A DNA stretch of 64,000 nucleotides from Candidatus Dojkabacteria bacterium UBA2259 (GCA_002347605.1 DDXN01000001.1:9701-73700), one strand, 5' to 3'; positions 19,135-59,092 are shown, counted from the stretch's first letter. Made by a program: numbers and translations. Notes: generated by a model from the sequence alone, not told the origin.

Positions 19135-20064
19135 ATGATAACTGCAGGAGAGGTAATCAAAAATAAAAGGGAGTCCCTTGGTAAAAATTTACATACTGTA
19201 AGTACAGATACAAAGATACAGCAAAGATTCCTAGAATATATTGAGAATAATGAGTTTAATAGGTTTGATTCTGAAATTTTTGCATCTGGATTTCTAAAAA
19301 TATATTCTAAATATCTTGGTTTAGATGAAGAAAAGATACTTGCACTTTACAGGAGAGGAAGACATCCAGTAACAAAAACAACTAAGAAAAACCAAATTAA
19401 CACCGTAAGAAAAAAATTGTCCATATCTCCTAAATCAATTGGCATAATTACTTTAATATTCTTTTTAGCCTCAATCATAGGATATATTGGATATCAGATA
19501 TACAAATTTCAAAAGCCCCCCGCATTAACAGTAACAGAACCCCTAAACGAATATGTCTCAAAAAAAGAGATCATTACAGTAAAAGGAAATACAGAGATAT
19601 CAACCCTTGTAGAAGTAAATGGCTCCCAAGCAACAGTGAACGAAACTGGTGAGTTTGAAATTGAATTGAAATTAAAAACTGGTGTGAATAGTATATCAGT
19701 AAAAGCTTGGAAAGAATCTAATACAAAATTACAGACAACTCATACCCTAAAAGTTATATATTCTCCAGAAGATGAGCTCCCTCTTGAAAATCAACAGGAA
19801 GAATTTCTACTTGTTCTGACAATATCTCAATCTCCTTCTTGGATAAAATTAGATATTGATGGAGAAAGTAAAATATCTCAAGTACTACAACCTAACACAC
19901 AACATGAATATCCTGTATTACAAGGATTCTCGTTGGTAACAGGTAGAATACAAAATACAAAATTACAAATAAATGAGGAGGAGCTTCAAATACCTTCTTC
20001 CAGTACAACTGGTATCGGGCAAATTACCTGCAAAATTGAAAATAACGAATTGTTATGCGAATAG
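19135..20064 (+). CDS. RodZ-like protein (N-terminal XRE-type HTH, single TM, C-terminal extracytoplasmic domain)
   Basis: The N-terminal HTH-like region (AGEVIKNKRESLGKNLHTVSTDTKIQQRFLEYIEN) plus the TM IGIITLIFFLASIIGYIGY and a beta-rich C-terminal domain match the RodZ/DUF4115 architecture. Confidence 0.5.
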   Translation: MITAGEVIKNKRESLGKNLHTVSTDTKIQQRFLEYIENNEFNRFDSEIFASGFLKIYSKYLGLDEEKILALYRRGRHPVTKTTKKNQINTVRKKLSISPKSIGIITLIFFLASIIGYIGYQIYKFQKPPALTVTEPLNEYVSKKEIITVKGNTEISTLVEVNGSQATVNETGEFEIELKLKTGVNSISVKAWKESNTKLQTTHTLKVIYSPEDELPLENQQEEFLLVLTISQSPSWIKLDIDGESKISQVLQPNTQHEYPVLQGFSLVTGRIQNTKLQINEEELQIPSSSTTGIGQITCKIENNELLCE

Positions 20065-23916: not shown

Positions 23917-25125
23917 ATGGATATCTCAATACCAACAAAGTTCCTTGAAAAAATACTACAAATTGGAAATCTCAGTATCTCATCTCAGTATGATAAATAC
24001 TTAAATTATTGGCCACTATTCCTTTTCGGATTACTACTCTCCTTCCTGTTATTACCCATAATTGGAAAAATCGCAACAAAATTTGGTATTACATACAAAC
24101 CAAGAACAAAAAGAAGAAATAGGGAGTTTGATAATCCCGAGAAAGCCCTCCATGACAAGGAAACTCCCGCATTGGGAGGACTTGCAGTAACAATACCCGT
24201 ATTGATACTAATCCCTATACTCTTTAGATTAGATCCCTTTACCTTACCTATTTTCCTAGCTATAGCAGTTCTTGTTATTGGCTCTGTACTAGACGACATC
24301 TTTAACCTACCATCAAAAGTTCAACTTGGATACCAAATCCTAGCTGCTGGAATAATTGCTTTCTCTGTATTAGATCTATCCCATGTTAGCTTTTTTACCA
24401 ACGATTTTCTTAACTTAGCGGGAATAAGCTGGAGTGCCAAGATTTTCTCCTTCCCAATCTCATTTGTATTCCCAGGAGATTTAATACTCCTAGGTTGGAT
24501 ACTACTCTGTATTAACTCTGTAAAATGGGTAGGAGGCTCTCCAGGTTTGGTAGAATCCTACTCCCTAGCAATCTTCCTTCTCATCTTTGTCCTTGGTATA
24601 AGTACTTTCTCATTATTTTCATCAAGTTTAAGCATATTAATATCTGGATCTTTAATCTCTCTGTTGTACTTTGCATTTCCACCTCCTAAGATTATGTCTG
24701 GTTCAAGTGGAAAATCCATCTACGGTTTTCTAATCAGTGTACTGGCACTACTAAGTGATGCAAAATTCTCAACAACAATTATGCTACTAGCATTACCAAT
24801 AATTGATGCTTTTTACGTTATTATTTACAGATATATAACATACAAACCAAAGAATATCTTAGAACTAATGAAGATAAATGATACCTCTCATTTACATCAC
24901 CAATTGCTTAAACTTAATTTCTCGAACAGGCAGATTCTCCTCATAGAAACATCCTTTTCTCTGCTTGTTGGTTCCTTTGCAATCCTTTCAACTGGAGCAT
25001 TAAGATACTTCGCTTTGATATTTGGAATAGCCTTGGTAATCGTGTTTGTTGTATATATAAACTACAGGGCTAGAATGAAGGAGAAAGACAAAAAAGAGTC
25101 TCCTGAATCAAAATACTCATACTAA
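23917..25125 (+). CDS. Polyprenyl-phosphate N-acetylhexosamine-1-phosphate transferase, MraY/WecA (GT4 family)
   Basis: Polytopic protein with ALGGLAVTIP, the DDIFNL aspartate-rich motif and a later HHQL region typical of MraY/WecA-type transferases. The mid-region is low-complexity S/L-rich. Confidence 0.65.
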   Translation: MDISIPTKFLEKILQIGNLSISSQYDKYLNYWPLFLFGLLLSFLLLPIIGKIATKFGITYKPRTKRRNREFDNPEKALHDKETPALGGLAVTIPVLILIPILFRLDPFTLPIFLAIAVLVIGSVLDDIFNLPSKVQLGYQILAAGIIAFSVLDLSHVSFFTNDFLNLAGISWSAKIFSFPISFVFPGDLILLGWILLCINSVKWVGGSPGLVESYSLAIFLLIFVLGISTFSLFSSSLSILISGSLISLLYFAFPPPKIMSGSSGKSIYGFLISVLALLSDAKFSTTIMLLALPIIDAFYVIIYRYITYKPKNILELMKINDTSHLHHQLLKLNFSNRQILLIETSFSLLVGSFAILSTGALRYFALIFGIALVIVFVVYINYRARMKEKDKKESPESKYSY

Positions 25126-25156
25126 TTTCTAGACAAATCACGGTACCCTGATATAA

Positions 25157-25819
25157 TTGATATATATGAAAAAATGGAAACCTGCCCTCATAATTATGCT
25201 ACTTGTCATACTCCTTTCTGTCTTCTTTTTTTTCGTTCCTCTAGATAATATTGTTAAGAATATTCCTGTCATAAAAAGCTTTTACAAAAATACTACACTA
25301 GATATAACGACTCCAAATGGGAAAGCTACTGTAAAAATAGATGGAAAAGAGTATGGGGATACTCCTGTAAATATCACAAACCTAGTAGCTGGAACCTATC
25401 AAGTTGAATTGAATAGGACATCACAAAAAGAGGGTTTTTACAAGCCCCATTTCTTTAACATTGAACTAACGAAAAACTCAACATCAAGAATAAATATGGA
25501 GATAGGGCCTGGTGATTATCTACATGGAGTCGTCCTTTTCTACATAGAAGATAAAACTATTGAGTCGGGAAAAGGGAAAATAATGCTGACCTCTAGCGCA
25601 GATGATGCAAAGGTATATATTAACGATGAGTACTTCGATACAACCCCACTTACAAACATTGTGCTTGAAAAAGGGGAATATAGTATCAAATTAGAAAAAA
25701 CAACCTTTGAGGATTTAGAGTTCCCAATTGTAGTTAGTGCTGGTCATGTATTGAATATCAAAGGGTATCAATTCCCTCTTCCTATAACTTTTGTAACAGA
25801 GAAAAAAGATGAGCAATAA
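25157..25819 (+). CDS. PEGA domain protein (N-terminal TM anchor, two PEGA repeats)
   Basis: GKATVKIDGKEYGDTPVNITNLVAGTYQVEL and AKVYINDEYFDTTPLTNIVLEKGEYSIKLE fit the PEGA pattern. Confidence 0.6.
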   Translation: MIYMKKWKPALIIMLLVILLSVFFFFVPLDNIVKNIPVIKSFYKNTTLDITTPNGKATVKIDGKEYGDTPVNITNLVAGTYQVELNRTSQKEGFYKPHFFNIELTKNSTSRINMEIGPGDYLHGVVLFYIEDKTIESGKGKIMLTSSADDAKVYINDEYFDTTPLTNIVLEKGEYSIKLEKTTFEDLEFPIVVSAGHVLNIKGYQFPLPITFVTEKKDEQ

Positions 25820-28817
25820 AGAGGATTTAAGTAAAATTAAAGGACAAACCCCTATCTCCGTAATAGTACATGGAGGCAATTATATATCTTTCTTACTCGC
25901 AAAAACCCTTCTTGAACAGGGTAGCCATGTTGTAATGATAGATAAATACACAAATACCTCAAAACAGTATTTTACTGAGTTAAAAAAGACTGGAAGAGTC
26001 AGCTTCATAGATTTTAAAGGTCTTAAATCCTTCTATGAAAAAATTGCGAGGGTAGACTACCTCTACTACATGCTTGGCGAAAAGGTTGAAGGAAGTAAAA
26101 ATGTTGATAGTAAAGACTTTCTTTCAGAAACTGACTATCTTAACCAAAGCTTAACATGTGCTAACAAATACAAAGCGAAGATGTCACTAATTACCTCTTT
26201 GAGGTTAAACAGAGAGCTTTCAAATAGAATAAACAACGAGAAAGATGGAAAAACAAAACCATACTCCCCACTTGAGTTACAAAGGTATGGAGAGAACTAT
26301 ACTGCAGAGTATGTAGACAAAACAAAAGCCAATTTACGAATAATTAGATTAGGAACAGTAATTGGGAAAGGAGTAAATCAAATATCAGATGATACCTTAG
26401 ATAAGCTATTTACCGATGCAACTCAAAGACACCAAATTGATATCGAGGGAGAGGGTTTAGAGATACACAACATTATTCATGAAAGTGATGCAATATATGG
26501 AATACTTAAATTAACATTCTCGGATGATACAAAAGGGGAGGTAGTATCTCTCTGTAATAAGAACGATTACTCAACTCTTTCGATTGCATATAAATTACTT
26601 GAGCTAGATGTTGAAGCAAAGGCTATAAAATTTGTTGAAAGAGAAGATAGTAGTATGGTACTTCAAGATCTCTATGTCCCAGCACCAAACGCTTCTGAAT
26701 ATGGATGGAAACAGAATGTCTCCTTAGAAGAAAGTACACTTGACCAGGCTAAGGCTTACTACGAGAAATCAGATAAAAAGTGGGAAGGAGACAAAACAGA
26801 GGGAGTATCAAAATACAAGGTCCAGGAAGATACAACAAATGTTTCCAAAACCAAACTCGGAAACATGCTTGCCTCTCTTATCAAGCCCTTTAGAGTCCTC
26901 ACTAACCCTAAACAGCTTTTTAAAAAGATTGACTATTTAAAGATATTAAAATGGGTATCACTTTCTGCACTATTTCTTTCCTTTGTATACTTCTTTTTGG
27001 CACCATTAATTAGTATCTCTTTAGGTGGAATCTTAATATACAGACAAGAAAAATCCCTAGAGGAGTCCATCTCTAATCTCGATTTTGATAATATTGAAAA
27101 AAGTACTTCCTCTCTTTCAAAAAATGTCTCTAAAATTGAAAACAGTTTAAATCGATTGTTTTGGGTATTTGTAATAACAGACCTAAGAGGTGAATATACA
27201 AACCTCTTCCAGGTTGTCCAGGGAACTAAATATATTGCAGAGAGTGGAAAGGATTTGGTTGTAGGATTAAAACCTTTAGGACAATATATTAAAGATTTTC
27301 AACCATCAATACGATTAGAAAACAGCAAGCCAGAGACAGTAGAGGAGTACAACCAGTATTTAGAATCTATCGATGACAACAAATATCTCATAAAAGAGGG
27401 AATATACAAAATGTCTCTTGCTCAAAACCTAATTACAACAACCAATACAAGTAACTTCCCACCCTTTTTAAAGAATTTTGTGTTTGATTACAAAGAGTTG
27501 GTTACAAATATTGACAATATAGTTAAACCCTTAGAAAAAGTCTCTCAGTTTCTACCTGATATATTGGGATTAAATGAAAGAAAAAGATACCTAATACTAC
27601 TTCAGGATAACGGAGAGATAAGAAGTACAGGAGGAAGAATATCTAGTTACGCTATTGTAGCAATAGAGAACGGCCAGATAAGAGAGCTTTACGTTGATGA
27701 CGCATACAATGCACAAGCGATACTAAATCTTAAAGGCTACTACTACAGACCACAAAACTCCCTAGTCAGGGCACTTCCTAGCACTCCATTTGCCCTACCT
27801 TTGGTAAACTGGGATCCAAACCTTGATAATGTGCTTCTCTCTTCAGAACAGTTTATCTATGACCTTGGAAAAGGAGACTCTCTTGATGGAGTTATTACTC
27901 TCGACATAGTCTTTTTACAAAAACTCTTAGATAAATGGAATGGTATTCAAGTTCCAGGAGAAAGCGAACTAACAACCTCAGAAACTCTTTACTCAAAAAT
28001 ATTCGAAACATACTCAGAGGAGGGACCAAATACTCCAAGTAAATCTACATTTCTAACAGACTTCTTTAACGCAGTAATCACAAAGATATTCTCAACCAAG
28101 ATAACGGATAGTAAAGATATTTACAATACAATATCGGAGACAATTGAAGAGAAACATATCCTTTTCACCTTTAAAAACTCAATGGCCAGATCCTATGCCG
28201 ATGACAGAGGATTCGATGGGAATTTAGATGCCAAATTCCAAAGTGCCCCAATTAATATTGATTGGAATTGGGGAAATAACAAAGCTAATCTGTATATTAA
28301 GAAAAATCATACACTAGATATATATATAAAGGATGAGAATACAATTGACTATACATACCAAATTGCTATACAAAATGACTCAACAAAAGAAGAGTACCCA
28401 CAAGGAACATACAAAAACTATGTAAGAATATATATACCATACAGTGCAACAGTAACTGGAATAAAGGGGATTACAAATAACAAGTATGATGTATACGAAG
28501 AGGGTGGATACAAAGTAATTGCTGGGTGGTTTAATATCCCAATTAAAGACACTTCAATATTAGAAATAAAGTACAGGGTATCCAATCAGAGTAATGATTC
28601 TAACTTCCTTTTAACTAAAGATGAAACTCATTACAAAATGGATATAAATATATACAAACAGCCTGGAAGTAGAAAAGATGCATATAATCTCTCAATTAGT
28701 TATCCAACTGCATGGGTAATTGAAAGTAGTGATGGATTAACAAGAATAGAAAACAATATAAACAGAAGGTTTGAACTATCCTCAGATCAATATTTCTATC
28801 TATCTTGGCAAAGATAA
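25809..28817 (+). CDS. Large membrane-anchored protein: N-terminal Rossmann/NAD-binding epimerase-like domain, TM, C-terminal DUF4012-like domain
   Basis: 1002 aa. N-terminus VIVHGGNYISFLLAKTLLEQGSHVVMID is Rossmann-like. A TM lies at about aa 380-405. The long C-terminal region resembles the DUF4012 proteins common next to cell-envelope genes in CPR genomes (pattern-level call). Confidence 0.5.
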   Translation: MSNKEDLSKIKGQTPISVIVHGGNYISFLLAKTLLEQGSHVVMIDKYTNTSKQYFTELKKTGRVSFIDFKGLKSFYEKIARVDYLYYMLGEKVEGSKNVDSKDFLSETDYLNQSLTCANKYKAKMSLITSLRLNRELSNRINNEKDGKTKPYSPLELQRYGENYTAEYVDKTKANLRIIRLGTVIGKGVNQISDDTLDKLFTDATQRHQIDIEGEGLEIHNIIHESDAIYGILKLTFSDDTKGEVVSLCNKNDYSTLSIAYKLLELDVEAKAIKFVEREDSSMVLQDLYVPAPNASEYGWKQNVSLEESTLDQAKAYYEKSDKKWEGDKTEGVSKYKVQEDTTNVSKTKLGNMLASLIKPFRVLTNPKQLFKKIDYLKILKWVSLSALFLSFVYFFLAPLISISLGGILIYRQEKSLEESISNLDFDNIEKSTSSLSKNVSKIENSLNRLFWVFVITDLRGEYTNLFQVVQGTKYIAESGKDLVVGLKPLGQYIKDFQPSIRLENSKPETVEEYNQYLESIDDNKYLIKEGIYKMSLAQNLITTTNTSNFPPFLKNFVFDYKELVTNIDNIVKPLEKVSQFLPDILGLNERKRYLILLQDNGEIRSTGGRISSYAIVAIENGQIRELYVDDAYNAQAILNLKGYYYRPQNSLVRALPSTPFALPLVNWDPNLDNVLLSSEQFIYDLGKGDSLDGVITLDIVFLQKLLDKWNGIQVPGESELTTSETLYSKIFETYSEEGPNTPSKSTFLTDFFNAVITKIFSTKITDSKDIYNTISETIEEKHILFTFKNSMARSYADDRGFDGNLDAKFQSAPINIDWNWGNNKANLYIKKNHTLDIYIKDENTIDYTYQIAIQNDSTKEEYPQGTYKNYVRIYIPYSATVTGIKGITNNKYDVYEEGGYKVIAGWFNIPIKDTSILEIKYRVSNQSNDSNFLLTKDETHYKMDINIYKQPGSRKDAYNLSISYPTAWVIESSDGLTRIENNINRRFELSSDQYFYLSWQR

Positions 28818-29186: not shown

Positions 29187-30272
29187 ATGAGTAACTCAGC
29201 GAAATCAAAACATATTCAAGAATTAGTTAAGAAGGGAAAAGAACAAGGCTTTCTTTCTCAGGAGGATATCTTAGAGGTATTTCCCACTATTGAGGAGGAT
29301 ATTGTACTGTTGGATGATATTTTTAGAGAGTTACAAGAAAATGATGTAGAGGTATTAGAGCCCGAAGAGGATACTGTATCTGACAATGAGGAGTTAACCT
29401 TAGAAAAAAAGATTAGAATACTAAAAACAATTCAGTCAAGTCTTTCAACCGACGCAATTAGATCCTATCTTTATGAAATAGGAAAGATTCCACTTCTAAC
29501 GGGGGAGGAGGAGGTAATACTTGCAAAAAGAATAGAAAAAGGAGACAAAGAAGCTGGACAACTTTTAATAACAGCAAACCTTAGATTGGTTGTAAGTATC
29601 GCTAAAAAATATAGTAAGAGTGGCTTAGAGTTATTAGATCTAATCCAAGAGGGAAATATCGGATTAATGAGGGCTGTAGAGAAATTTGACTATCACAAAG
29701 GATTTAAATTCTCAACATACGCTACATGGTGGATTAGACAGGCAATAACTAGAGCCATTGCAGACCAGGCAAGAACTATAAGGGTACCTGTTCATATGAT
29801 AGAAACTATTAATAAATTCAACAAAGTAAATGGTACTCTTACAACAAGATTGGGAAGACAACCAACTGATGAAGAGATAGCAAAAGAAATGGATATTGAA
29901 TTAGAAAAGATAGCCGAAATAAGGAAGATAAAACAGAACCCTTCCTCTTTAGCAACACCCATAGGTGATGAGAAAGATAGTAAATTACAGGATATTCTTC
30001 CTGACGAATGGTCACAAAGTCCAGAAGATTTTGCTACTGCAGAATATTTGAAAAACCAATTAAAAGATATTCTAGACTCTTTACAAGATAGAGAAAGGAG
30101 GGTCCTTTCACTTAGATTCGGATTGACAGATGGGGTAACAAGAACATTAGAAGAGGTTGGTAGAGAGTTTGGCGTAACAAGAGAAAGAATAAGACAGATA
30201 GAAGCAAAAGCACTTAAAAAACTAAAGGAGAAGTCCTCTGAAAAGAAACTGGACGACTATATAGATACTTAA
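29187..30272 (+). CDS. rpoD: RNA polymerase sigma-70 factor RpoD
   Basis: Region 2 ([54 protein letters not shown]) and region 4 ([27 protein letters not shown]) are present. Confidence 0.93.
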
Positions 30273-30526
30273 TTGGTAGAATCCTCTTCTCCCTCTGTCA
30301 TTTCAAAAAAGGAATCAGGTTGAATTGCAAAACCATTTTCTATTTTCTCTGACACTAAATCGAGAATCTCTTCGTTAAATTTTGGGCTTAGTGTCTTTGT
30401 ATATCTTTCTGCATTTGGGTTAATAGTTGTTAGGGATTTACTTGAAAAAACAGCTATTCCTCCCCACACAATAGCGATTATTACTGACAAAAGAATTATT
30501 ACAAAATATTTTCTAAAAGTTTCCAT
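30269..30526 (-). CDS. Hypothetical small membrane-anchored protein (possible PilP-like accessory)
   Basis: 85 aa with a single N-terminal TM. Last gene of the pilN-pilO-like operon. No motif. Confidence 0.35.
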
Positions 30527-30530
30527 ATTT

Positions 30531-31160
30531 TTAATCGTAAAAGTTTACATTCTCTATCTGATATATCCTTAATCCAAGAGAGTAATCAGTATTCCCTCGT
30601 TCATCAACATCACTGCTATATGAAATACTTTCGATAACTGGAAACATTGGTAATGCCTCTAAATCTTTAAGAAAACTTATTAGATTTATTCTATTCCCTG
30701 AAACTGATAATCTCACTGAGTATGGCTTTAAAGCTGATGTTTTTAATTCTGTTTCCGTTTTTTGTGATTTCTTCTGATCCGAAAATCCAATGGATTTAAG
30801 TACAAAATTATTTCTTGTTACAATCGCATCTATGTTTGCTAAAAACAAACTAAAATTCTGGGATGTAGGAAATATTAACGTTAAATTCTCAAATGTCTCT
30901 CTATTTTCCGTGTACTGTCCATCTAAACTTGTTAATGCTTCTAGTTTACTCTTGAGTGCAGATGATATTTGCTCTTTTTTCTTTATCTCAGAGTTAATAT
31001 TCTTCACTGTTTTAAACGTTGGAACCAGGGCAAACACAATTAATAGTATCGCCACTATATATGTTAAACCTGTGAAAATCATCTCTCTTTTCTTTCCTGT
31101 ACCACCTTTAACCATTTTCACATATTCAACTTTTCTTGCACTACTTTCTAATGTCCCCAT
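30531..31160 (-). CDS. PilO-like type IV pilus assembly protein
   Basis: Short cytoplasmic N-terminus, one TM, a coiled-coil, and a C-terminal alpha/beta domain. Immediately downstream of, and 1 nt from, the PilN-like gene. Confidence 0.45.
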   Translation of the reverse strand: MGTLESSARKVEYVKMVKGGTGKKREMIFTGLTYIVAILLIVFALVPTFKTVKNINSEIKKKEQISSALKSKLEALTSLDGQYTENRETFENLTLIFPTSQNFSLFLANIDAIVTRNNFVLKSIGFSDQKKSQKTETELKTSALKPYSVRLSVSGNRINLISFLKDLEALPMFPVIESISYSSDVDERGNTDYSLGLRIYQIENVNFYD

Positions 31161-31161
31161 A

Positions 31162-31719
31162 CTATTCTATTTCCTTAATAACAGTAAAATTAATAGATAC
31201 ATCATACTCATTCCCAACCTTGTCTATACTAACTCTCACATCACTATAATATGTATTATTCTTTAAAGAATCCTCATAGTCCCTTAATGCTTTGAAATCC
31301 GAAGTGGTTAGAGAAAGAGTTACTCTTTGACTACTAATTGAAATACTCTCAACATTCATTGTAAGAGGAATCCCATTTATAATCTCTGATATTAGGTTAG
31401 AATTAAGCTCTTGTCCCTCCTTAATAACTTTTATGTCACCCAAAAGAGTTTGGAGATTTTCATACTTAATAACATTCTTTTTCCATGTTTCGTTTTCAAG
31501 TACCTTTACCTGAGCATCAATCTTAGATGTTAAATCATTGTTTTTCCCATCATTTATTAATCTGAAAGCGAAAGCCCCCAGAACTATCGCTTGAACACCC
31601 ATTAACATCCATTTCCCAATAGTTGTAAGCCACGAAAAAGAGGTCTGTAAAACAGAATCTGTACTTCCTGCAGGTTCTAAGAAATTAATAGATTTTGTTT
31701 GATCTTTTGCTTTTAACAT
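31162..31719 (-). CDS. PilN-like type IV pilus assembly protein
   Basis: N-terminus contains SINFLEP, which resembles the conserved PilN INLLP PilM-binding motif. This is followed by one TM and a periplasmic coiled-coil/ferredoxin-like region. Confidence 0.5.
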   Translation of the reverse strand: MLKAKDQTKSINFLEPAGSTDSVLQTSFSWLTTIGKWMLMGVQAIVLGAFAFRLINDGKNNDLTSKIDAQVKVLENETWKKNVIKYENLQTLLGDIKVIKEGQELNSNLISEIINGIPLTMNVESISISSQRVTLSLTTSDFKALRDYEDSLKNNTYYSDVRVSIDKVGNEYDVSINFTVIKEIE

Positions 31720-35945: not shown

Positions 35946-37643
35946 ATGAACAATACAAAAACAAAATATTACAAGAATGACAACCTTAAGTTGTGCACCC
36001 TGTCAGGAACAAGTGAGATAGGTAGAAATTGTAACTTTCTTGAATACGGAGACGAAATCATCATAGTTGATTCTGGTTATTCATTTCCTGGGCAAGAGAT
36101 GTACGGCATTGATTACCTGATTCCAAATATTAAATATTTAAGAAAAAACAAAAAAAGAGTTAAAGCTATACTAATAACCCATGGGCATCTTGATCATACA
36201 GGAGCATTAAGATGGATATTACCTGACTTAGACTTCCCTCCAGTATATGCTGGAGCTTTTGCTAAGGCATTAATAGAAGAGAGACTAGAAGAATACGGTT
36301 TGAAGAGTAAAACTAAAATATTTGGAGTAACAAGGCATACAACTATAAATATTGGAAAGAGTTTTAGAGCTACCTTTATAGGGATTAATCATAGTATCCC
36401 AGATGCTTTTTCAATATTTGTACAAACCCCTAGGGGTAATGTTTTCTTTTCAGGAGATTACAAAATAGATACACAACCAACTAACGAACTTGAGGCTGAC
36501 TATGAAAAATTAAAATCCTTAAGAGGCCGTGTTGATTTAGCACTCATGGATAGTACAAACGCATCTAACACAGGAAAGTCTCCCTCTGAAACCGAGGTAT
36601 ACAGGAATTTAGAGAATGTAATTGCAAAGATAGAAGGTAGAGTCATAGTTGCTGCTTTTTCATCTCTTCTTACAAGGCTTTACTCACTCTTTGAAATCGC
36701 AAAAAGAACAAACAGAAAAATCGTAATATCTGGAAGAAGCCTAGACCAATCGATATCTATTGCAAGTAAACAGGGATATATAAAGATACCACAAGGATTA
36801 ATGATTAAAGAGAGAGATATCCCTAAGTACAAAGATAACGAGCTATTAATTCTTTGTACAGGTAGTCAAGGGGAGAGATTTGCTGCTCTAAACAGAATAT
36901 CCTTAAATGAGCATAAATATATTAAGATTAAAAGGGGAGATCTTGTTATCATGTCCTCTTCTGAGATACCTGAAAACGTTTCTAGTATTGAGCATATGAC
37001 AGACAGATTAATTGCATTAGGATCAGACTTAATTAAGGATACAATTGAAACAAAAATACACTCCACAGGACACGGAAATCAAGAAGATATGAAAATTATG
37101 CATGACCTTATCCAACCCAAAGCAGTAATGCCGATACACGGACCACTCACATTTAGATACTTTAATAAAAAGAATTATATTTCTTGGGGGATGAAAGAGG
37201 AGAATGTATATCTTACTAACGATGGTCAAATATGGGTATTTAATGGTAAGTATTGGACAAAAGATAAATCTATTGAATCCAAGCCAATCCTCATAGATGG
37301 ATTGGGTGTAGGAGATACTGGAGAGATTGTTTTAGGTGACAGGAAGCAACTTTCAGAGTATGGTATGTTCATAATTGTTCTTAATTTAAGTACAAAAACA
37401 CATAGGTTGCTTGGTCGACCACAATTTGTCTCTCGTGGATTCATATATATGAAAAAATCTCAAGAGTTACTCAAAGAAATTCAAACTATAATATATGATG
37501 TACACAAAGGGTGGGAAAATACTTCCAGATCAAAGAATAAATATGAATATGACGAGCTAAAATCCTTAATGGAGAAATCAATAGGGAAGTATATTTACAA
37601 AAAAACAGAAAGGGAGCCAATTATTCAAATAGTTGTTGTATAG
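35946..37643 (+). CDS. rnj: Ribonuclease J (metallo-beta-lactamase/beta-CASP)
   Basis: HGHLDHTGAL motif, beta-CASP region and a C-terminal domain. 565 aa, typical RNase J length. Confidence 0.9.
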   Translation: MNNTKTKYYKNDNLKLCTLSGTSEIGRNCNFLEYGDEIIIVDSGYSFPGQEMYGIDYLIPNIKYLRKNKKRVKAILITHGHLDHTGALRWILPDLDFPPVYAGAFAKALIEERLEEYGLKSKTKIFGVTRHTTINIGKSFRATFIGINHSIPDAFSIFVQTPRGNVFFSGDYKIDTQPTNELEADYEKLKSLRGRVDLALMDSTNASNTGKSPSETEVYRNLENVIAKIEGRVIVAAFSSLLTRLYSLFEIAKRTNRKIVISGRSLDQSISIASKQGYIKIPQGLMIKERDIPKYKDNELLILCTGSQGERFAALNRISLNEHKYIKIKRGDLVIMSSSEIPENVSSIEHMTDRLIALGSDLIKDTIETKIHSTGHGNQEDMKIMHDLIQPKAVMPIHGPLTFRYFNKKNYISWGMKEENVYLTNDGQIWVFNGKYWTKDKSIESKPILIDGLGVGDTGEIVLGDRKQLSEYGMFIIVLNLSTKTHRLLGRPQFVSRGFIYMKKSQELLKEIQTIIYDVHKGWENTSRSKNKYEYDELKSLMEKSIGKYIYKKTEREPIIQIVVV

Positions 37644-38930
37644 TTGAATAGGTTTAATGATATAATCTGGGGTATGATTAAACTGCCAAAGAAAAAATCA
37701 AAAAGAGGTACTCTGTTAGATGGAATAACTCCCATAGTTGCTTTGGACATTGGTACAGAGACTATTAAAAGTCTCCTTTTTACAATGGGAGAATATGGTG
37801 TATCTGTAAATAGAATATCCAGAATACAACAGCAACAGCATGCAATGAGAAGTGGAATTATCAAAAATCTTGATACGGTGCTCGAGAACTGCAAACTATC
37901 CATAAATCAACTACTTAGCAACCTGAAACCTGAAGAGTATCCCAAGAAGGTAATGATGGGTATAGCTGGAGAATATATACAAGGAGTCTCAATAGTCGTT
38001 AACTACGAGAGAGAAGAGCATTTTGAAAAAGAAGTAACTAAAAAAGAACAGGATAGGATTATAGGGGAAGTTAAATCTCAGATAGCTGTAAGTGGTAGAG
38101 AAGACTTAGGTCTTAGAACAGGTTTAAAGAATGAAGATATCGAAATACTACACATTACCCCAACTGGACTTGAGATAGGGGGTATGCCTGTAAACTCATT
38201 AATAGGGTATAAGGGTAGAGATGTTAGATTGAATTTCTACGCATCCTTTGCCCCTAAAACATATACTGAAGCTCTTAGGAAAGTTGCTTCTTCGCTCAAT
38301 TTTGATGTTTTAGAGATAGTATCTCAACCATTTGCAGTAGCTAGAGCACACTCTGGGGGTAAAAATACTAATTTCTCAGCAATCTTTATAGACGTTGGTG
38401 GTGGTACTACAGATGTTGCAATAGTAAAACATGGGAACGTTGCAGAAACGCAAATGTTTGCATTTGGAGGAAGAGCATTTACAAAAGAGTTGGCAAGATT
38501 AACAGATTCTGATTTTAGACATGCAGAGCAAAGAAAAATAAAGTACTCAGAAAAAGATTTACCAAAAGAAGTTATGAGACAGGTTCAAAAGACTATGTAT
38601 TCAACGGCAACACTTTGGATGAGAACATTAAAGGTTGCTTTGGAAAGCTGTGAAGATGTAGGACCTCTTCCAACACAGATATATCTTTGTGGTGGTGGTG
38701 CACTACTTCCTGATATTAAACAGTCTTTAATGGAATTCCCTTGGAAGAAGTATCTACCAATTGCTGTTGTTCCAAAAATTGATATGTTTACACCTAATCT
38801 GCTAGGCTCAGTTGTTGATAATAGTGGTGATTTGCAAAATCTTTACGATATTACTCCAGCATCTTTAGCAAAATTCTTGTATGATATGGAAATAGATAGG
38901 ACAACTAAGAATATAAATTGGGATGCATAA
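37644..38930 (+). CDS. Actin-like ATPase of the FtsA/PilM family
   Basis: IVALDIGTETIK (phosphate 1), FIDVGGGTTDVAIV (phosphate 2) and IYLCGGGALLPDI (adenosine) are actin-fold motifs. The sequence cannot distinguish FtsA from PilM. Confidence 0.75.
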   Translation: MNRFNDIIWGMIKLPKKKSKRGTLLDGITPIVALDIGTETIKSLLFTMGEYGVSVNRISRIQQQQHAMRSGIIKNLDTVLENCKLSINQLLSNLKPEEYPKKVMMGIAGEYIQGVSIVVNYEREEHFEKEVTKKEQDRIIGEVKSQIAVSGREDLGLRTGLKNEDIEILHITPTGLEIGGMPVNSLIGYKGRDVRLNFYASFAPKTYTEALRKVASSLNFDVLEIVSQPFAVARAHSGGKNTNFSAIFIDVGGGTTDVAIVKHGNVAETQMFAFGGRAFTKELARLTDSDFRHAEQRKIKYSEKDLPKEVMRQVQKTMYSTATLWMRTLKVALESCEDVGPLPTQIYLCGGGALLPDIKQSLMEFPWKKYLPIAVVPKIDMFTPNLLGSVVDNSGDLQNLYDITPASLAKFLYDMEIDRTTKNINWDA

Positions 38931-40789
38931 ATATGGAAGAAAAAATCTCTACAGCAAAAATCATAATAGATGAAAACAATGAAATTACAGACTTAGTGAG
39001 AGAAATTCACAAAAGTAAGGCAGAGAGAGTTGTGCTTACTTTTACAGAACAAACAGATATCTTAATTAGCCCTATTAATCTAAAAGTTCTACACGAAGCA
39101 GCCGAAAGAGAAGGGAAATTACTAATTGCTCAGATAATACAAAACCCAACAGGTATACGTAATTCAAAGTTAGCTGGTATTAAGACTATAGATACCCCTT
39201 CTAATCCAACAGAGTATGATTGGGAAGAGGCTTTTGAAATGATACAAGCTAAAAAGAAAGAGAAGCTTGAAAAAAAGAAACTCCTTGAAGAGTTGCCAAC
39301 AAAAGAAGATGAGAAGGAGATATTTGAAGAGAAAGTAGAAGATAGTATTGAAAAAGTAAAACCTCCTAAGGTAGAGACTACATCGCAGTATATAGATAAG
39401 AGGGGAGTTAAGCGTGCCACCCCCTTTATATCCATAGATGATGATATACCTCAAACTTTAGAGAGTAATCCTGTACAAGCCGGTATTTTGCCTGCTGTAG
39501 GTGCCATTCCTTTAAAAAAGAGGTTTAGAATTAATATATTTAAGAATCTTAAGAGTTCAATTAGGCCAAAAGTTGGTGAAACTGTTAGAGTAGGAAACAA
39601 AAAGAAGATACTTAAGATTTTACTCTTTACACTCGTTCCTTTAGTATTACTTTCTGCATTAGGTTTCTTCCTGTATAACAGGTATGCAACATTTGTAAAA
39701 GTAAGAGTGTTTGTAGAATCCAAACCTGTTGAAGTAGAAAATCTCCTCGTCGGTGATACGACTATTGAAGAGATTGATTTTGAGAGCTTAAAGATACCAA
39801 TAAAGATGGAGGAGAAAACGAAGAGTCTTTCTAATAGTATCACCGCTACTGGTAAAGCATATAGAGGAGAGAAGGCAAAAGGTACAATTGTAATTTTTTA
39901 CAATGGGGATTGTGATGGAGATACCCCAGATATTTCCCTTCCTGTTGGGCAAGCTGTTACTTCAAGTGGACTCTCATTCAAATTAATTAATAGCGTATCT
40001 TTTACATGTAGCGAGGCTTTCTCATCGGGTGTTCAGGTTGAAGCAGATACTTTTGGGGATGAATATAATATTGTGTCTGGTAAAAGTTTTTCAATTGATG
40101 GACACTCCCTTGATACTCTTTTTGCAAAAAGTACAAGTAATTTTACTGGTGGTACTAAAGAGGAATACACTGTTCTTTCTCAAACAGATGTAAATAATGG
40201 AGTTGAAGCTTTGAGTACTACTGCTATTGAAGAGGTTAAATCAGAGTTAAGAGAAATTGCTGGGGACTGGGAGATTATCGAAGACACTATTCGTAGTGAG
40301 GTAGACAAGACTACTATTGTAACAGACAAAAAGGTCGGTGTACAAGCAGATATTGTTAATTTAGATCTTACTATTAAGGGTAGTGCCACCTATTACAAAA
40401 CAACTGGTTTAGATGAAAAGCTTACACAACTTTTAGAAAATAAGGCTCAAGAGGAGAATCTTTTTGAAAGTAATAAAGATTTAGAGCTTGTCTTGGGTGA
40501 TGATATCCAAAAGAGTATTACTGTAGAAGAGAGTAAGAAGAGTGTAGTAAAGATAAAGATTGTAGCAAAGGCAACTATTAAACCTAAGGTAGATAAAGAC
40601 CAGCTACAGAACAAGTTAAAGGGTATGGAGTGGGATGAGGGAAAAACATATTTAAATACATTGAATTATGCACAGAGAAAACCTGAGGCTGTGTTTAATC
40701 CCTTAAACTATCCAGCTTTTTTACAGAGGTTCCCTGATAGAAGGGGAGGGGTCTTAGTGAGTATTGTTGAACTTGAGGCTGAGGAATAA
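38918..40789 (+). CDS. Hypothetical bitopic membrane protein (cytoplasmic N-domain, KE-rich linker, TM, ~370-aa extracytoplasmic domain)
   Basis: 623 aa. Overlaps the ftsA/pilM-like gene by 13 nt. TM KILLFTLVPLVLLSALGFFLY at about aa 225-245. No recognisable motif. Confidence 0.5.
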   Translation: MGCINMEEKISTAKIIIDENNEITDLVREIHKSKAERVVLTFTEQTDILISPINLKVLHEAAEREGKLLIAQIIQNPTGIRNSKLAGIKTIDTPSNPTEYDWEEAFEMIQAKKKEKLEKKKLLEELPTKEDEKEIFEEKVEDSIEKVKPPKVETTSQYIDKRGVKRATPFISIDDDIPQTLESNPVQAGILPAVGAIPLKKRFRINIFKNLKSSIRPKVGETVRVGNKKKILKILLFTLVPLVLLSALGFFLYNRYATFVKVRVFVESKPVEVENLLVGDTTIEEIDFESLKIPIKMEEKTKSLSNSITATGKAYRGEKAKGTIVIFYNGDCDGDTPDISLPVGQAVTSSGLSFKLINSVSFTCSEAFSSGVQVEADTFGDEYNIVSGKSFSIDGHSLDTLFAKSTSNFTGGTKEEYTVLSQTDVNNGVEALSTTAIEEVKSELREIAGDWEIIEDTIRSEVDKTTIVTDKKVGVQADIVNLDLTIKGSATYYKTTGLDEKLTQLLENKAQEENLFESNKDLELVLGDDIQKSITVEESKKSVVKIKIVAKATIKPKVDKDQLQNKLKGMEWDEGKTYLNTLNYAQRKPEAVFNPLNYPAFLQRFPDRRGGVLVSIVELEAEE

Positions 40790-40839
40790 TCCTTTATTTT
40801 AATCAAATTTATTGATAGAATTGCGTACTTATCTATTAT

Positions 40840-40916
40840 GTACCCGTAGCTTAATTGGATAGAGCAATTGCCTTCTAAGCAGTAGGTTGCCGGTTCGATT
40901 CCGGCCGGGTACACCA
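40840..40916 (+). tRNA. tRNA-Arg (anticodon TCT), CCA encoded
   Basis: Cloverleaf: acceptor GTACCCG/CGGGTAC, D-arm GCTTAATTGGATAGAGC, anticodon loop CTTCTAA, T-arm TGCCGGTTCGATTCCGGC, then ACCA. Confidence 0.85.
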
Positions 40917-41003
40917 GGAGAGATGCCTGAGCGGTCGAAAGGACACGCTTGGAGAGCGTGCGTATGAGAAATCGTACCGTGGGTTCGAATCCCACTCTCT
41001 CCG
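40917..41003 (+). tRNA. tRNA-Ser (anticodon GGA), long variable arm, no encoded CCA
   Basis: Acceptor GGAGAGA/TCTCTCC, anticodon stem CACGC/GCGTG with loop TTGGAGA, a 19-nt variable arm, and T-arm TGGGTTCGAATCCCAC. Starts immediately after the tRNA-Arg CCA. Confidence 0.85.
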
Positions 41004-41262: not shown

Positions 41263-42603
41263 CTAGTCCCGGGAGACACAACGAACACCGAAGGAAGTAT
41301 ACGTCTTCTCGTCATTGTGGGTATCCCCATCGCCCAAGCGTACGTACCAAGCAAGAAAGGAAAGGAAGGCAGTCTCGGACGAAGACCAATATGTCCCATA
41401 GTGTATTGCCCGACCATCTCCAGTTGTAAACTCTGCCGCTTCTTGTAATGTGTTCCCTGCTTGATTATACATCCCATCTATATATGCTAACATTAACTCT
41501 TTTTGTGATGGTAAATACCAATTACTTCTACCATCTAGTTCCAACTCTGCACACCAGTTTATTGCATTACCACAATCAGCGTCTAAACCATCATATAAAC
41601 TTCTTGGTACTGAATTAAAGTAATCACAGACTCCAAGAGATATTTCTGTAAAATTATTTGTATTAGATATTGGTGGATCTTGTGATAACATTACAGGAGT
41701 CTGATCACTACTCCAATATATTCCTGCTCTCTCATCCTTCCATATATTGTCTGATACATAGGTCCATATGGCTTCTTCCCCATGATAGTCTTCTGGTGAT
41801 AACGGCTTTTCAAACCATCCAAAATAGTCTACTCCTCCCATATTATCATATGCACTGTACTGCATATTACTAAAATCTATTGGTGTTGGTGGGGTATATG
41901 TACCTGTTAATAGTGTTCCTGAATTTGAATAGAATTTCTTCCCATCTAATACCTCATCTACTCCTGCATCTCCTAGAAATGACCATGTACCTGTTAATAG
42001 TGTACTTGAGTTAGAATAGAATTTCTTGCCTGACATTACGTCTGTTACAGATGTATCTCCTAAATACGATACTACTGGTGGAGTATATATACCTGTTAAT
42101 AATGTCCCTGAATTTGAATAAAAAGTCTTACCCGCTAATACATCTGATACTGATGCACTCCCCTTATACGATACTATTGGTGTTGAAGGAAGTACAAGAG
42201 TACCTGTAAGTAACTCCCCTGAATCTGAATAGAATCTATTTCCTGTTAAAACATCCTCTACCGATGTGTCTCCTAGGAATGTAAACTCCTCTGGAGTGTA
42301 TGTACCCGTTTGAATATCCCTAGACCTATTGTAAAAAGTCTTCCCCTCTAACACATCACTCGCTGTTACACTACCATTAGGAGCCCATTCTGAAGCTTCT
42401 GTTACTTTCTGTACTATTACATCAATATCATCCTCTGGGACATCTTGAGTATATCCTAGCTCTACTAACTTCCCATATATACCTTTTACATCTCCCTCTA
42501 TACTCTTGGTACTTACTTCTTCTTTAAGTGGTTTAAAAAGGAATACTATTATCAAAGTTACTATTGCACCAATTATGAACGAAAGGATATATTTCTTGTT
42601 CAT
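41263..42603 (-). CDS. DUF1566 (Lcl C-terminal domain) protein with N-terminal TM anchor and internal tandem repeats
   Basis: The C-terminus ...WYLPSQKELMLAY...YWSSSETAFLSFLAWYVRLGDGDTHNDEKTYTSFGVRCVSRD matches the DUF1566 pattern (YWSS...vRCVR). The middle has at least four copies of a ~38-aa unit (DTSVxDVLxGKxFYSNSGTLLTGTYTPP). Confidence 0.6.
   Translation of the reverse strand: MNKKYILSFIIGAIVTLIIVFLFKPLKEEVSTKSIEGDVKGIYGKLVELGYTQDVPEDDIDVIVQKVTEASEWAPNGSVTASDVLEGKTFYNRSRDIQTGTYTPEEFTFLGDTSVEDVLTGNRFYSDSGELLTGTLVLPSTPIVSYKGSASVSDVLAGKTFYSNSGTLLTGIYTPPVVSYLGDTSVTDVMSGKKFYSNSSTLLTGTWSFLGDAGVDEVLDGKKFYSNSGTLLTGTYTPPTPIDFSNMQYSAYDNMGGVDYFGWFEKPLSPEDYHGEEAIWTYVSDNIWKDERAGIYWSSDQTPVMLSQDPPISNTNNFTEISLGVCDYFNSVPRSLYDGLDADCGNAINWCAELELDGRSNWYLPSQKELMLAYIDGMYNQAGNTLQEAAEFTTGDGRAIHYGTYWSSSETAFLSFLAWYVRLGDGDTHNDEKTYTSFGVRCVSRD
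41895..42370. repeat. Intragenic tandem repeats (~114 bp x ~4, diverged) inside the DUF1566 gene
   Basis: Recurrent DNA blocks (e.g. tacctgttaatagtgt[a/t]cctgaatttgaatagaatttcttccc...). Coordinates are approximate. Confidence 0.5.
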
Positions 42604-56451: not shown

Positions 56452-56863
56452 GGGGACGTTAGGCTTTCGACAGAAGTATATAGGTGCTGTTGTCACAAAT
56501 CGTTTTTTAGTTCGTAAAACTAAAACACAGATAAGTGTAGAAAACAAACTTAACGCTTTTGCAAGTAAGCTAAGGGCTGCATTTATTGCACCTTCTTATG
56601 CTTACAATTTTGCATAAGTTTGATCAATTAATTTTGGTCAATGTCTACCTTTCTTATCCCTAGTTAGGGGAGATAGACAGTCGTTACTAGGGTATAGTAT
56701 GTATTCTTTGTCAGTAGAGGATCCATAGTGAATATAATTACTGAGTAGGTTATACTTTTTGTTAGATTTTTTAGTGTAATCTAGCTATATAAATCTAAAT
56801 ATATTTGTAAATGACATTGTACTTAGCTTTTGGACGTGGGTTCAAATCCCACCGTCTCCACCA
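56452..56863 (+). ncRNA. ssrA: tmRNA (ssrA)
   Basis: 5' GGGGACGUUAGGCUUUCGACAG... and 3' ...GGACGUGGGUUCAAAUCCCACCGUCUCCACCA closely resemble Bacillus-type tmRNA ends (from memory). The acceptor 5' GGGGACG pairs with 3' CGUCUCC, including the G3:U70 alanine identity pair. A T-arm and encoded CCA are present. The tag ORF is not assigned with confidence. Confidence 0.75.
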
Positions 56864-58412
56864 TATCAGGTTCGTTATTGGTAATTGCTTCAAAAAGGGT
56901 TATTGGAAGAGAATAGTTAGGGGTTCGATAACCCTCTATTTTGTCATACTCTAAATTCGTATCAAAGATAAAAGAAAAGAACTTCTGTTTTTGATATACA
57001 TCGTAGTTTTCCCATACAGTATAAGGTTTCTGTAAAACCTCAAGAACTTCTTTAGAAGAGGTTCGATAAGGAATAGAGTAATCAACATCTGTCTTTATTC
57101 TGTTTTCCAGTATCTCTACCTCTTCTCCATATTTCTGAATTTGTTTTTCGTATTGTTTTAACACGGTTGAATTAGTGGTTCTAATTGCGAAAGAGGCGTA
57201 TTTCTCTATTTCGTGTTCTATTTTCTCCTTGTTTCCTATGTCTTCTTCTCTTGCGTTTTGGAGGTTACCTATCTCTATCTTCCAAGCATCTTCAAAGATA
57301 GCAAGGGATAGGTTTATTAGGTCCTCTGACGCCCTGATTTGACCTAGAAGGGCACTAAAACCTGCATGTATGTCTTCTGCCCTAATGCTTTTCCCATACA
57401 TCTCACACTCCTTGTTGGCACATTTGTAATAAGGGTGTAGTTTCCCTGTTTTACTTCTAGAAGATGCACCTGTCAGTTTCTTCCCGCAACAAGCACAGTT
57501 AATTAATCCTCTGAGGAAAAAATCCTCTCTTATATCTTTTCTTACAAAGGAAGGTGTTTTACCTTCTAAGATTTTCTGATTTCTTTCAAAGGTCTTAATA
57601 TCTATAATACCCTTATGATGTCCCTCCCTTCTAATTACTTCCCATTTTGGAAACTCTATATAACCTGCATAAAAGGGGTTCTTAAGAAGGTTTGTAAAGG
57701 TTACAATCCCTTTGTTGGCGTGTTGGTTGTTGCTTATAACACCTTTCTTTTGGAGATATCTTACAGCATCAATTTTATTTTCGAATCTTCTATTAGCAAA
57801 ACCCTCTAACGCCCCTTTAATAAACTCTGCATTCCTTGTAGGGATATCTATAGTCCCATGTATAGGGTCTTTTATTTTCTTGTATCCTAGAGGCGCACAG
57901 AACGCCCAATAACCGTTTCTAAGTCGTGCTTGTTGTTTCTGTATCACTTGTCTTTGGTTTTGTTGTCTTTCTAGTTGATTATGTGCCGCCTGCAATGTCT
58001 CAAAGTAGATTCCCTCAGGAGTATCATCAAAATCGTAATTCAAACACAATAGAATAACATCTCTAATTTTTAAGGCACTTCGTAATTTAATATGACCTTC
58101 GGTATCTCTTGCAAACCTCTTAAGGTCATCAAATACAACAACAAAACTTTTATGCGGATTTTTATCTATATACTCTAGCATCTCTCTCATTGCGGGTCTT
58201 TTCATAAAATCTCCTCCCCCTGTAAAACTGTCAAAGAAACTCCTTTCATAAGGGATGTTTTCTTCTCTTAATTTGGATAAGCACCTTTCTTCTTGACTCT
58301 CTAATCCATGTCCTTCCGTTCTCTGTTTTCTTGCAGATACCCTTGCATATATTAATCCAACTTTGTTTTTATAAAGGTTGTTATTGCGAAACGAACCCAT
58401 TTCACTATCCAT
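56823..58412 (-). CDS. Large serine recombinase (phage-type integrase)
   Basis: N-terminal resolvase catalytic domain GLIYARVSARKQRTEGHGLESQEE with the catalytic Ser in YARVS. Also a recombinase domain, a zinc ribbon CACCGKKL...YYKCANKEC and a C-terminal coiled-coil. The last ~13 codons overlap the ssrA 3' end. Confidence 0.85.
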   Translation of the reverse strand: MDSEMGSFRNNNLYKNKVGLIYARVSARKQRTEGHGLESQEERCLSKLREENIPYERSFFDSFTGGGDFMKRPAMREMLEYIDKNPHKSFVVVFDDLKRFARDTEGHIKLRSALKIRDVILLCLNYDFDDTPEGIYFETLQAAHNQLERQQNQRQVIQKQQARLRNGYWAFCAPLGYKKIKDPIHGTIDIPTRNAEFIKGALEGFANRRFENKIDAVRYLQKKGVISNNQHANKGIVTFTNLLKNPFYAGYIEFPKWEVIRREGHHKGIIDIKTFERNQKILEGKTPSFVRKDIREDFFLRGLINCACCGKKLTGASSRSKTGKLHPYYKCANKECEMYGKSIRAEDIHAGFSALLGQIRASEDLINLSLAIFEDAWKIEIGNLQNAREEDIGNKEKIEHEIEKYASFAIRTTNSTVLKQYEKQIQKYGEEVEILENRIKTDVDYSIPYRTSSKEVLEVLQKPYTVWENYDVYQKQKFFSFIFDTNLEYDKIEGYRTPNYSLPITLFEAITNNEPDMVETVGFEPTSKS

Positions 58413-58887
58413 TTCTTTTTAATTCTAAGAGTTTATTTATTGCTTTATACATGCGATTCTCTATCGAGGTCTCATATCTTGCATAATAAGAGGATAAATA
58501 CTCCATGTGAGATGTTGTAACTACTGGTTTATAACCGTCCCTTTCTTTAAAAGTATCTAAATCAAGTAGTTTTGATACTATTGTTGGGTCGATGGCGGTC
58601 TTCATTAGTTCTGCTTCTGCTTTTGCAACTCTTAAAAGTTTTATATAGGCAACTGAGATTCTTTCTATCAAAATCTCTTCTAGAGTGTTTTTAGGTGGGA
58701 AATCTTGAGATAGTGAATTATAAAAATTAAGGAAATCAAACTCCTCATACTCAGATACACTTTTTTTTAAGATACCATGCTTAACTGCATTGAATCTTGA
58801 TACCTCTTTTCCTTCTTCGGTTTTGACTCCTCCCAATTTACTGTTTTCCCTGTTCGCCTCTAACTGTTTTTCTGTTATGTTCTTCAT
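58405..58887 (-). CDS. Hypothetical protein (island cargo)
   Basis: 160-aa ORF overlapping the recombinase start by 8 nt. No motif. Confidence 0.4.
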   Translation of the reverse strand: MKNITEKQLEANRENSKLGGVKTEEGKEVSRFNAVKHGILKKSVSEYEEFDFLNFYNSLSQDFPPKNTLEEILIERISVAYIKLLRVAKAEAELMKTAIDPTIVSKLLDLDTFKERDGYKPVVTTSHMEYLSSYYARYETSIENRMYKAINKLLELKRNG

Positions 58888-59053
58888 AAATCTTAATGTT
58901 TTTATTTATTATCTCTTTTGCTAAGGAATATATGTAATATCTGATTTTTTCAATGTCATCATTGCTTATATCCCTAGTGGGAAGGTATTCCCGACATTTT
59001 TCTACACTTAACATTTTATGTAATGGATAATCTGGTTCTAGGGTTTCTAGCAA
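58838..59053 (-). CDS. Hypothetical small protein
   Basis: 71-aa ORF. Weak support. Confidence 0.25.
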   Translation of the reverse strand: MLETLEPDYPLHKMLSVEKCREYLPTRDISNDDIEKIRYYIYSLAKEIINKNIKIYEEHNRKTVRGEQGKQ

Positions 59054-59092
59054 CTCAGATTAATAAGTAAGGGTTTCGATTTGTTCGACAAC

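Follow-up and report, generated by a model that had tools for sequence, protein, structure and literature searches.

A stretch of 64,000 nucleotides from Candidatus Dojkabacteria bacterium UBA2259 (GCA_002347605.1 DDXN01000001.1:9701-73700; called the window here, with positions counted from its first letter) contains two neighbouring plus-strand genes, one encoding a 418-aa actin-like ATPase of the FtsA/PilM family (37674..38930) and the other a 618-aa bitopic membrane protein (38933..40789), referred to below as the partner. The two genes are kept together throughout the Dojkabacteria and also at distant loci. We consider it fairly probable that a distinct FtsA-family actin and its dedicated bitopic partner form a conserved two-protein transmembrane module that couples the actin to the cell envelope. 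Judging from near-identical proteins so named by their sources, the organism belongs to Candidatus Dojkabacteria (candidate division WS6) within the candidate phyla radiation (CPR, Patescibacteria). The CPR accounts for a large share of bacterial diversity, and division and envelope building in these tiny cells are almost unknown. With an actin conserved at housekeeping level and a partner family of thousands of cluster representatives, the pair is a concrete candidate, open to testing, for core morphogenetic machinery of the CPR and of at least one lineage of Chloroflexota, and it points to an undescribed link between the cell interior and the envelope.

Conservation of the gene pair

A search with the partner profile retrieved 80 species-representative genomes, all of them Dojkabacteria-like, and the actin gene was located directly upstream of the partner gene in 79 of these loci. 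The 80th locus begins inside the partner gene, leaving no upstream room in which an actin gene could be seen. The pair was also retained where the gene for RNase J, the upstream neighbour in most Dojkabacteria loci, was displaced or absent. Twelve further distant loci (L085-L091 and L094-L098) contained the adjacent pair, with identities to the window proteins of 21-35% for the partner and 29-51% for the actin; one of them is a contig of Ktedonobacteraceae (Chloroflexota; L091) and five are metagenome contigs (L094-L098). The partner was the next gene after the actin in all loci. These results bear out the conserved pairing in relatives by which the first-pass annotation, made from the window sequence, had proposed to judge the two genes.

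The neighbours of the distant pairs, where listed, were varied and mostly unrelated. In L085, L086 and L088 (groES-groEL-clpB) the pair immediately precedes groES-groEL, and in L087 a recombinase island adjoins it. In L089 (KH-trmD-ftsW-murG-murC) it is located about 1.3 kb upstream of ftsW-murG-murC, and in L090 between alaS upstream and ruvX-yceG downstream; PAP2 was found among these varied neighbours as well. In the genome of the window, groES-groEL is situated about 3.5 kb past the window's left end (L092), possibly a vestige of an earlier gene arrangement.

No description of the partner family or of the pairing was found in the searchable literature or in curated family libraries, and the partner family appears to be undescribed. 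The first-pass annotation had offered two alternatives for the actin-like gene. The second of these, in which the protein is FtsA-like and its membrane partner undescribed, is supported by the conserved pairing, by the lack of a Pfam or NCBIfam family for the partner, and by the finding that no paper in the searchable literature links the two proteins.

Both gene starts were revised by alignment with homologues, while the assignment of both open reading frames (ORFs) to the plus strand was retained. The mechanical ORF of the actin-like gene opens at TTG 37644, right after the RNase J stop codon, and would give 428 aa; the homologues all begin at the equivalent of ATG 37674 (MIKLP...), giving 418 aa. 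The mechanical ORF of the partner opens at TTG 38918, and the homologues (40 of 40 aligned) begin at the equivalent of ATG 38933 (MEE/MED...). The actin gene ends with TAA at 38928-38930, and the partner ATG follows 2 nt further on. The 13-nt overlap reported in the first-pass annotation is therefore an artefact, since it rests on the unsupported TTG 38918 start, and it is replaced here by a 2-nt gap. The translational coupling that had been deduced from the overlap loses that basis and keeps another, namely tight spacing: the distance from the actin stop codon to the first in-frame partner ATG was -17 to +9 nt in most of 89 loci.

The actin-like protein between FtsA and PilM

The actin-like protein matched the Pfam families FtsA (50.9 bits), PilM_2 (39.4 bits) and MreB_Mbl (29.3 bits), each above threshold, and because all three pass, Pfam does not discriminate between FtsA and PilM. 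The match to PilM_2 (PF11104; threshold 27 bits) was restricted to profile positions 182-295 of 340. Against the NCBIfam models, the protein scored 84.1 bits for ftsA (TIGR01174), under the equivalog cut-off of 175.85, and 30.7 bits for pilM (TIGR01175), under the cut-off of 133. A similar pattern was obtained for all eight orthologues tested, consisting of the window protein and seven distant ones: TIGR01174 scores were 68-109 bits, all below the cut-off, with matches spanning only profile positions ~2-273 of 371, and TIGR01175 scores were 27-41 bits, one of the eight having no PilM match at the threshold used. The unmatched C-terminal third of the FtsA profile corresponds to the 2B/FtsZ-binding part. 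Among PDB sequences, the top match was FtsA of Vibrio maritimus (3.8e-9), followed by Myxococcus PilM (3.9e-4), with the alignment passing through the 1C region. By sequence, the distant actins and the window actin form one orthologous group that is closer to FtsA than to PilM and falls below both curated cut-offs.

The AlphaFold2 (AF2) model of the actin-like protein (predicted local distance difference test, pLDDT, 80; predicted template modelling score, pTM, 0.78) contained a strand-helix-strand insert of the 1C/SHS2 type at about residues 103-194, replacing subdomain 1B, a feature that is common to PilM. With Foldseek, the model matched FtsA (7q6i, 1e-22, template modelling scores 0.68/0.77; range for the full-length FtsA matches 7q6i, 3wt0 and 4a2a, 0.61-0.77) and PilM (5eox, 1e-20; 2ych, 0.65/0.79, with 0.79 normalised to the target). 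FtsA and PilM structures fit the model about equally, and the fold comparison is not discriminating. The phosphate-1 (DIGT), phosphate-2 (DxGGGTTD) and adenosine (CGGG) motifs were invariant, distant orthologues included. The actin fold called earlier is thus upheld by Pfam and NCBIfam, by PDB sequence matches, and by the AF2 model with its Foldseek hits.

Neither a hydrophobic segment nor a C-terminal amphipathic membrane-targeting tail was detected in the window actin. The protein ends 6 residues past the last core helix, leaving no FtsA-type linker, and over its final 15 residues the hydrophobic moment was 0.35 vs 0.57 for the membrane-targeting helix of Escherichia coli FtsA. Three distant orthologues (locus coordinates L089 4659-5909, L090 3556-4812 and, in Ktedonobacteraceae, L091 3-1298) have a C-terminal extension (e.g., ILRRVLQGMKK) with a hydrophobic moment of 0.48-0.66, like that of the E. 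coli helix. The Dojkabacteria actins lack such an extension, a distribution suggesting that the window's lineage lost an FtsA-type helix. Across the Dojkabacteria, the identity of the actin was 57-94%, and the adjacent RNase J was slightly less conserved (54-87%).

The actin could also be the one FtsA of this lineage, much diverged and with ftsZ elsewhere, in which case the partner would be a new lineage-specific divisome component that replaces the membrane-targeting helix. Such an origin would fit the top HMM (hidden Markov model) and PDB matches, the annotation of orthologues as FtsA by several sources, the FtsA-like amphipathic helix in the three distant orthologues, the position of the L089 pair close to ftsW-murG-murC, and the housekeeping-level conservation. 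We nevertheless regard it as rather unlikely, because every orthologue tested scored below the equivalog cut-off with the FtsZ-binding third of the profile unmatched, and because no ftsZ was found in the 64-kb window, in about 10 kb past each end, or in 91 sequences searched by tblastn (with a B. subtilis FtsZ query). On contigs with identical window proteins, no ftsZ, ftsA or pilM was called within about 10 kb past either window end, where groES/EL and murJ lie beyond the left end and a type IV pilus cluster beyond the right. The first-pass annotation had left room for an ordinary ftsZ just outside the window; in these flanks there was none, and at no locus was the pair seen adjoining ftsZ.

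Published surveys bear indirectly on the same question. One reports that conserved neighbours of ftsZ in the CPR include the FtsA Pfam domain (PMC9871819), and another that ftsA and ftsZ adjoin in Dehalococcoidia (PMC10608941). On account of these two surveys, which concern the CPR and Dehalococcoidia and not this lineage itself, a separate canonical FtsA is likely to be encoded in the genome, which argues by analogy against the window actin being its sole FtsA.

The first alternative of the first-pass annotation was a PilM whose PilN had been relocated. In this case, the actin would be the organism's PilM and would bind the INFLEP N-terminus of an orphan PilN-like protein, and the partner would be an extra pilus-associated envelope component. 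The PilN-like gene (31162-31719) is 6 kb from the pair on the opposite, minus strand, with INFLEP at residues 11-16 of its translation, and is followed by a PilO-like gene (30531-31160, minus strand). The INFLEP motif and the missing adjacent pilM noted earlier were both confirmed, while the assignments themselves are sub-threshold in Pfam (PilN, 17.7 vs 22.8 bits, E 0.0036; PilO, 18.1 vs 22 bits, E 0.003), which counts against a PilM role. This role would explain why neither these two genes nor, up to the contig end, the type IV pilus cluster past the right end of the window has a pilM, and it is in line with the above-threshold PilM_2 match, with the PilM label given to one orthologue by PGAP, and with the good structural matches to 5eox and 2ych. 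However, FtsA scores were 2-3 times the PilM scores in all eight orthologues, PilM scores remained far under the cut-off, and no PilN or PilO gene was called beside the pair in the seven distant contexts with genes listed. In addition, the conservation of the actin resembles that of a core housekeeping gene, and pilM, pilN and pilO are contiguous at both pilus loci of Saccharibacteria (PMC11623550). The HMM scores and the absence of PilN/PilO beside the distant pairs therefore disfavour a relocated PilN, and we judge the actin quite improbable as a PilM.

The bitopic partner and the proposed module

The partner had no family match in Pfam, NCBIfam, PHROG or PADLOC. Its AF2 model (pLDDT 78.9) and hydropathy revealed four regions. 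Residues 1-120 (38933..39292) form a folded cytoplasmic alpha/beta domain of four beta-alpha units with pLDDT >90, and residues 121-221 a disordered KE-rich linker. A single transmembrane helix follows at residues ~224-250 (39602..39682), which is the sole Kyte-Doolittle window above 1.6 and coincides with an AF2 helix at 223-251. Residues 252-618 (39686..40786) constitute a beta-rich extracytoplasmic domain. A KKK cluster lies on the N-terminal side of the transmembrane helix and no signal peptide was found, giving an orientation with the N-terminus inside and the C-terminus outside. The layout given in the first-pass annotation, with a cytoplasmic part, a KE-rich linker, one transmembrane segment and an outside domain of ~370 aa, was therefore confirmed, with the ~220-aa cytoplasmic part refined into a folded domain and a disordered linker and the length revised from 623 to 618 aa.

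Conservation differed among these regions: mean identity was 71% in the N-terminal domain and 55% in the ectodomain but only 28% in the linker. The N-terminal domain has no sequence relative in the PDB; it is a folded 100-aa domain that lacks an INLLP-type motif of PilN, and no Pfam PilN match was obtained. Within the linker, the motif FISIDxDIP (FISIDDDIP in the window, residues 165-173, 39425..39451) stood out in the 40-sequence alignment, where F165, D169, D171 and P173 were invariant or nearly so. An equivalent motif, G-F-x-M-x-x-G-G-D-I, was present in several distant clades. The linker motif may be a second actin-contact peptide.

The ectodomain contains a beta-barrel of ~100 aa (residues ~316-414, 39878-40174) of the type seen in baseplate J/gp6/gp47 wedge proteins and GlxA. 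It was matched to diffocin TRI-2 by a PDB profile (E 7.9e-5), and Foldseek aligned the ectodomain with the baseplates of phi812, A-1(L), Mu, phiCD508 and diffocin, with a probability value of 1.0 for the wedge-protein matches. Two family members pass Pfam Baseplate_J (PF04865; 31 and 35 bits vs 21.1), over only ~95 of 255 positions, and other members match the GlxA beta barrel (PF21110) instead. Matches to phrog_6 (baseplate wedge) were likewise obtained for two family members and not for the window partner, which also had no Baseplate_J match at E<=0.1. The label 'baseplate J/gp47 family protein' on some homologues thus mirrors one shared domain and does not denote a phage baseplate protein. 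This barrel is the only domain that the window partner shares with the baseplate J/gp6/gp47/TssF wedge proteins and GlxA: wedge proteins are soluble parts of virions or injection machines encoded among tail genes, whereas the partner is a cellular single-pass membrane protein in a housekeeping context. These results show that the extracytoplasmic part of a cellular membrane protein can contain a beta-barrel of the phage-wedge/GlxA type.

A prophage or contractile-injection baseplate (baseplate J/gp47) remnant lying incidentally beside an actin gene could account for the annotations, the PF04865 and phrog_6 hits and the structural matches to wedge proteins, but it is effectively refuted and hardly credible, because only the one barrel is shared and recurs in the cellular enzyme GlxA, the window partner has no PHROG or Pfam match and possesses a cytoplasmic domain and a transmembrane helix, no phage, tail, sheath or tube genes were called in any locus with genes listed, and the housekeeping context (RNase J, aminoacyl-tRNA synthetases, tRNAs, yidC, dnaA) is conserved across the whole class and beyond. 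A defence system was likewise rejected as a candidate, with no PADLOC match for the actin or the partner.

To gauge the size of the partner family, 1.84 billion cluster representatives were searched with a profile, and 5157 of them matched at E<=1e-3, 3302 at E<=1e-10 and 291 at E<=1e-30. Among the best 150 matches, 127 proteins were near full length; the N-terminal domain was present in 122 of them, and 119 combined this domain near the N-terminus with a hydrophobic segment. The N-terminal domain was also found in the Chloroflexota member, and members only 21-27% identical to the window partner share its layout. The partner in Ktedonobacteraceae (P0435; L091 1350-4085) is 911 aa long and carries a Pro/Gln/Asp-rich, low-complexity cytoplasmic linker of ~450 aa between the N-terminal domain and the transmembrane helix, approximately four times the length of the CPR linker.

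We propose the following mechanism for a module composed of the actin and the partner. The actin would represent a distinct branch of the FtsA/PilM family; it probably hydrolyses ATP and may form filaments. As the window actin has neither a hydrophobic segment nor an amphipathic tail, it would need an anchor. The N-terminal domain of the partner, its most conserved part, is the proposed actin-binding module and, perhaps together with the FISIDxDIP motif, would bind the actin and keep it at the membrane. The flexible linker and the one transmembrane helix would join this domain to the extracytoplasmic domain, whose baseplate-J/GlxA-type barrel might oligomerise or touch the wall or a surface layer. 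In this manner, the module would couple the nucleotide or assembly state of the cytoplasmic actin to envelope structure. Since the actin is conserved at housekeeping level, its neighbourhoods consist of core genes and no mobile or defence signature was observed, the role is most likely, by analogy, cell division or envelope morphogenesis in the CPR and at least one Chloroflexota lineage.

An actin with a bitopic membrane partner is a known general kind of system, and the logic of the module parallels FtsA-FtsN, PilM-PilN, MreB-RodZ and FcmB-FcmC, the partner itself being unrelated to the known ones. The likeness to the FtsA divisome comprises the actin fold with its 1C/SHS2 subdomain, the top sequence and structure matches, and the arrangement of a membrane-held actin that communicates with a bitopic protein bearing a large outside domain; some distant orthologues of the window actin additionally retain the amphipathic C-terminal helix. 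Unlike FtsA, the window actin lies below the equivalog cut-off, leaves the C-terminal third of the profile unmatched, does not adjoin ftsZ and has no membrane-targeting helix. Where FtsN has a short N-terminal peptide and a SPOR domain, the window partner carries a folded domain on the cytoplasmic side and a barrel of the baseplate type.

In PilM-PilN, and in GspL of type II secretion, an FtsA-like actin without an anchor of its own is similarly attached to the cytoplasmic end of a bitopic protein whose gene lies directly downstream. PilN, however, binds via a short INLLP peptide, and its outside domain is small and ferredoxin-like, in contrast to the 100-aa folded domain, long linker and differently folded 367-aa ectodomain of the window partner; moreover, no pilO, pilB or pilC is linked to the window pair, and the PilM HMM score of the actin is far under the cut-off. 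MreB-RodZ and FcmB-FcmC of filamentous cyanobacteria also combine a bacterial actin with a dedicated membrane protein, and FcmC is required for the proper membrane localisation of FcmB (PMC12645912). They differ from the window pair in that MreB and the ParM-derived FcmB are other actin branches and RodZ binds via a helix-turn-helix domain.

Several points weigh against an actin-to-envelope module of this kind. We infer the physical interaction of the two proteins and the domain through which it would occur, and a gene pair can stay linked without its products binding each other. The cellular process is likewise deduced from conservation and analogy. The linker motif is not family-wide, as it was not evident in P0426 or P0435. 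Three distant orthologues keep the amphipathic tail, so the role of the partner would not be anchoring alone. Furthermore, if the genome has no separate canonical FtsA, the actin would simply be the divergent FtsA of its lineage.

A broader interpretation goes beyond the two-protein module. The actins may represent a third functional class of the FtsA/PilM family, with an obligate family of bitopic partners (STAS-like cytoplasmic domain, one transmembrane helix and phage-wedge-type barrel ectodomain), that was ancestral to the CPR, is shared with at least one Chloroflexota lineage and provides, in addition to canonical FtsA-FtsZ and PilMNO, core cytoskeleton-to-envelope coupling in division or morphogenesis. 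We put this forward tentatively, as something conceivable but on balance doubtful. The description of the pair as an actin with a dedicated envelope partner would also correct annotation, because the labels 'FtsA', 'PilM' and 'baseplate J/gp47 family protein' can falsely suggest that the divisome is complete or that a pilus component or prophage is present.

Genomic setting of the pair

The window has a G+C content of ~34% and includes dnaA, dnaN, yidC and jag, placing the region close to the replication origin. Genes around the pair include rpoB/C, ftsK, a rodZ-like gene, dnaG, rpoD, metG, valS and the RNase J gene. The RodZ-like gene, at 19135-20064, is separate from the pair.

The RNase J gene (35946..37643, plus strand) was assigned from matches of its orthologues to Pfam Lactamase_B, RNase_J_b_CASP and RNase_J_C. 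A promoter and terminator scan gave no promoter-like or terminator-like signal above chance between RNase J, the actin gene and the partner gene, and RNase J is possibly co-transcribed with the pair. It is not part of the conserved module, because it is displaced or absent in L058, L062, L067 and L071 as well as in the distant loci. On the other side of the pair, tRNA-Arg(tct) and tRNA-Ser(gga) genes (40840..41003, plus strand, ARAGORN) mark the downstream end of the unit, and a promoter-like site was found at 40812-40839.

This genome has its pilus genes scattered, with three or more sites identified. A small operon (30269-31719, minus strand) divergent from metG consists of the PilN-like and PilO-like genes and a gene for an 85-aa membrane protein, and the pilus ATPase and platform genes lie apart from it. 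The cluster beyond the right end of the window (L093 13948-19406, approximately window 63950-69400, minus strand) encodes a prepilin peptidase (A24), pilins and other small genes, a 646-aa N_methyl protein, pilC (T2SSF) and a 183-aa T2SSE/pilB fragment, with no pilM, pilN or pilO before the contig end.

Further envelope-related genes were identified in the window. A run at 23917-28817 encodes a family 4 glycosyltransferase (MraY/WecA-like), a PEGA-domain protein and a 1002-aa membrane protein, which combines an epimerase-like Rossmann domain at the N-terminus with a membrane segment and, on the outside, a DUF4012 domain. The product of the gene at 41263-42603 (minus strand) is 446 aa long, is secreted or anchored, and contains at least five internal repeats of the type 'V..V..GK.FYSNSG.LLTGT' before a terminal Lcl C-terminal domain (Pfam E 1.3e-11); the position of this gene is filled by a Wzy_C (O-antigen ligase-like) gene in other Dojkabacteria.

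Finally, a gene for a large serine recombinase (56823-58412, minus strand) shares sequence with the 3' end of the tmRNA gene (56452-56863) and is followed by ORFs of unknown function, including one for a 708-aa protein with faint BRCT/DUF4379 matches. The block at 60-62 kb shows raised G+C (0.385) and a strong GC skew (+0.35), and the region 56452-62131 looks like an element integrated at ssrA.

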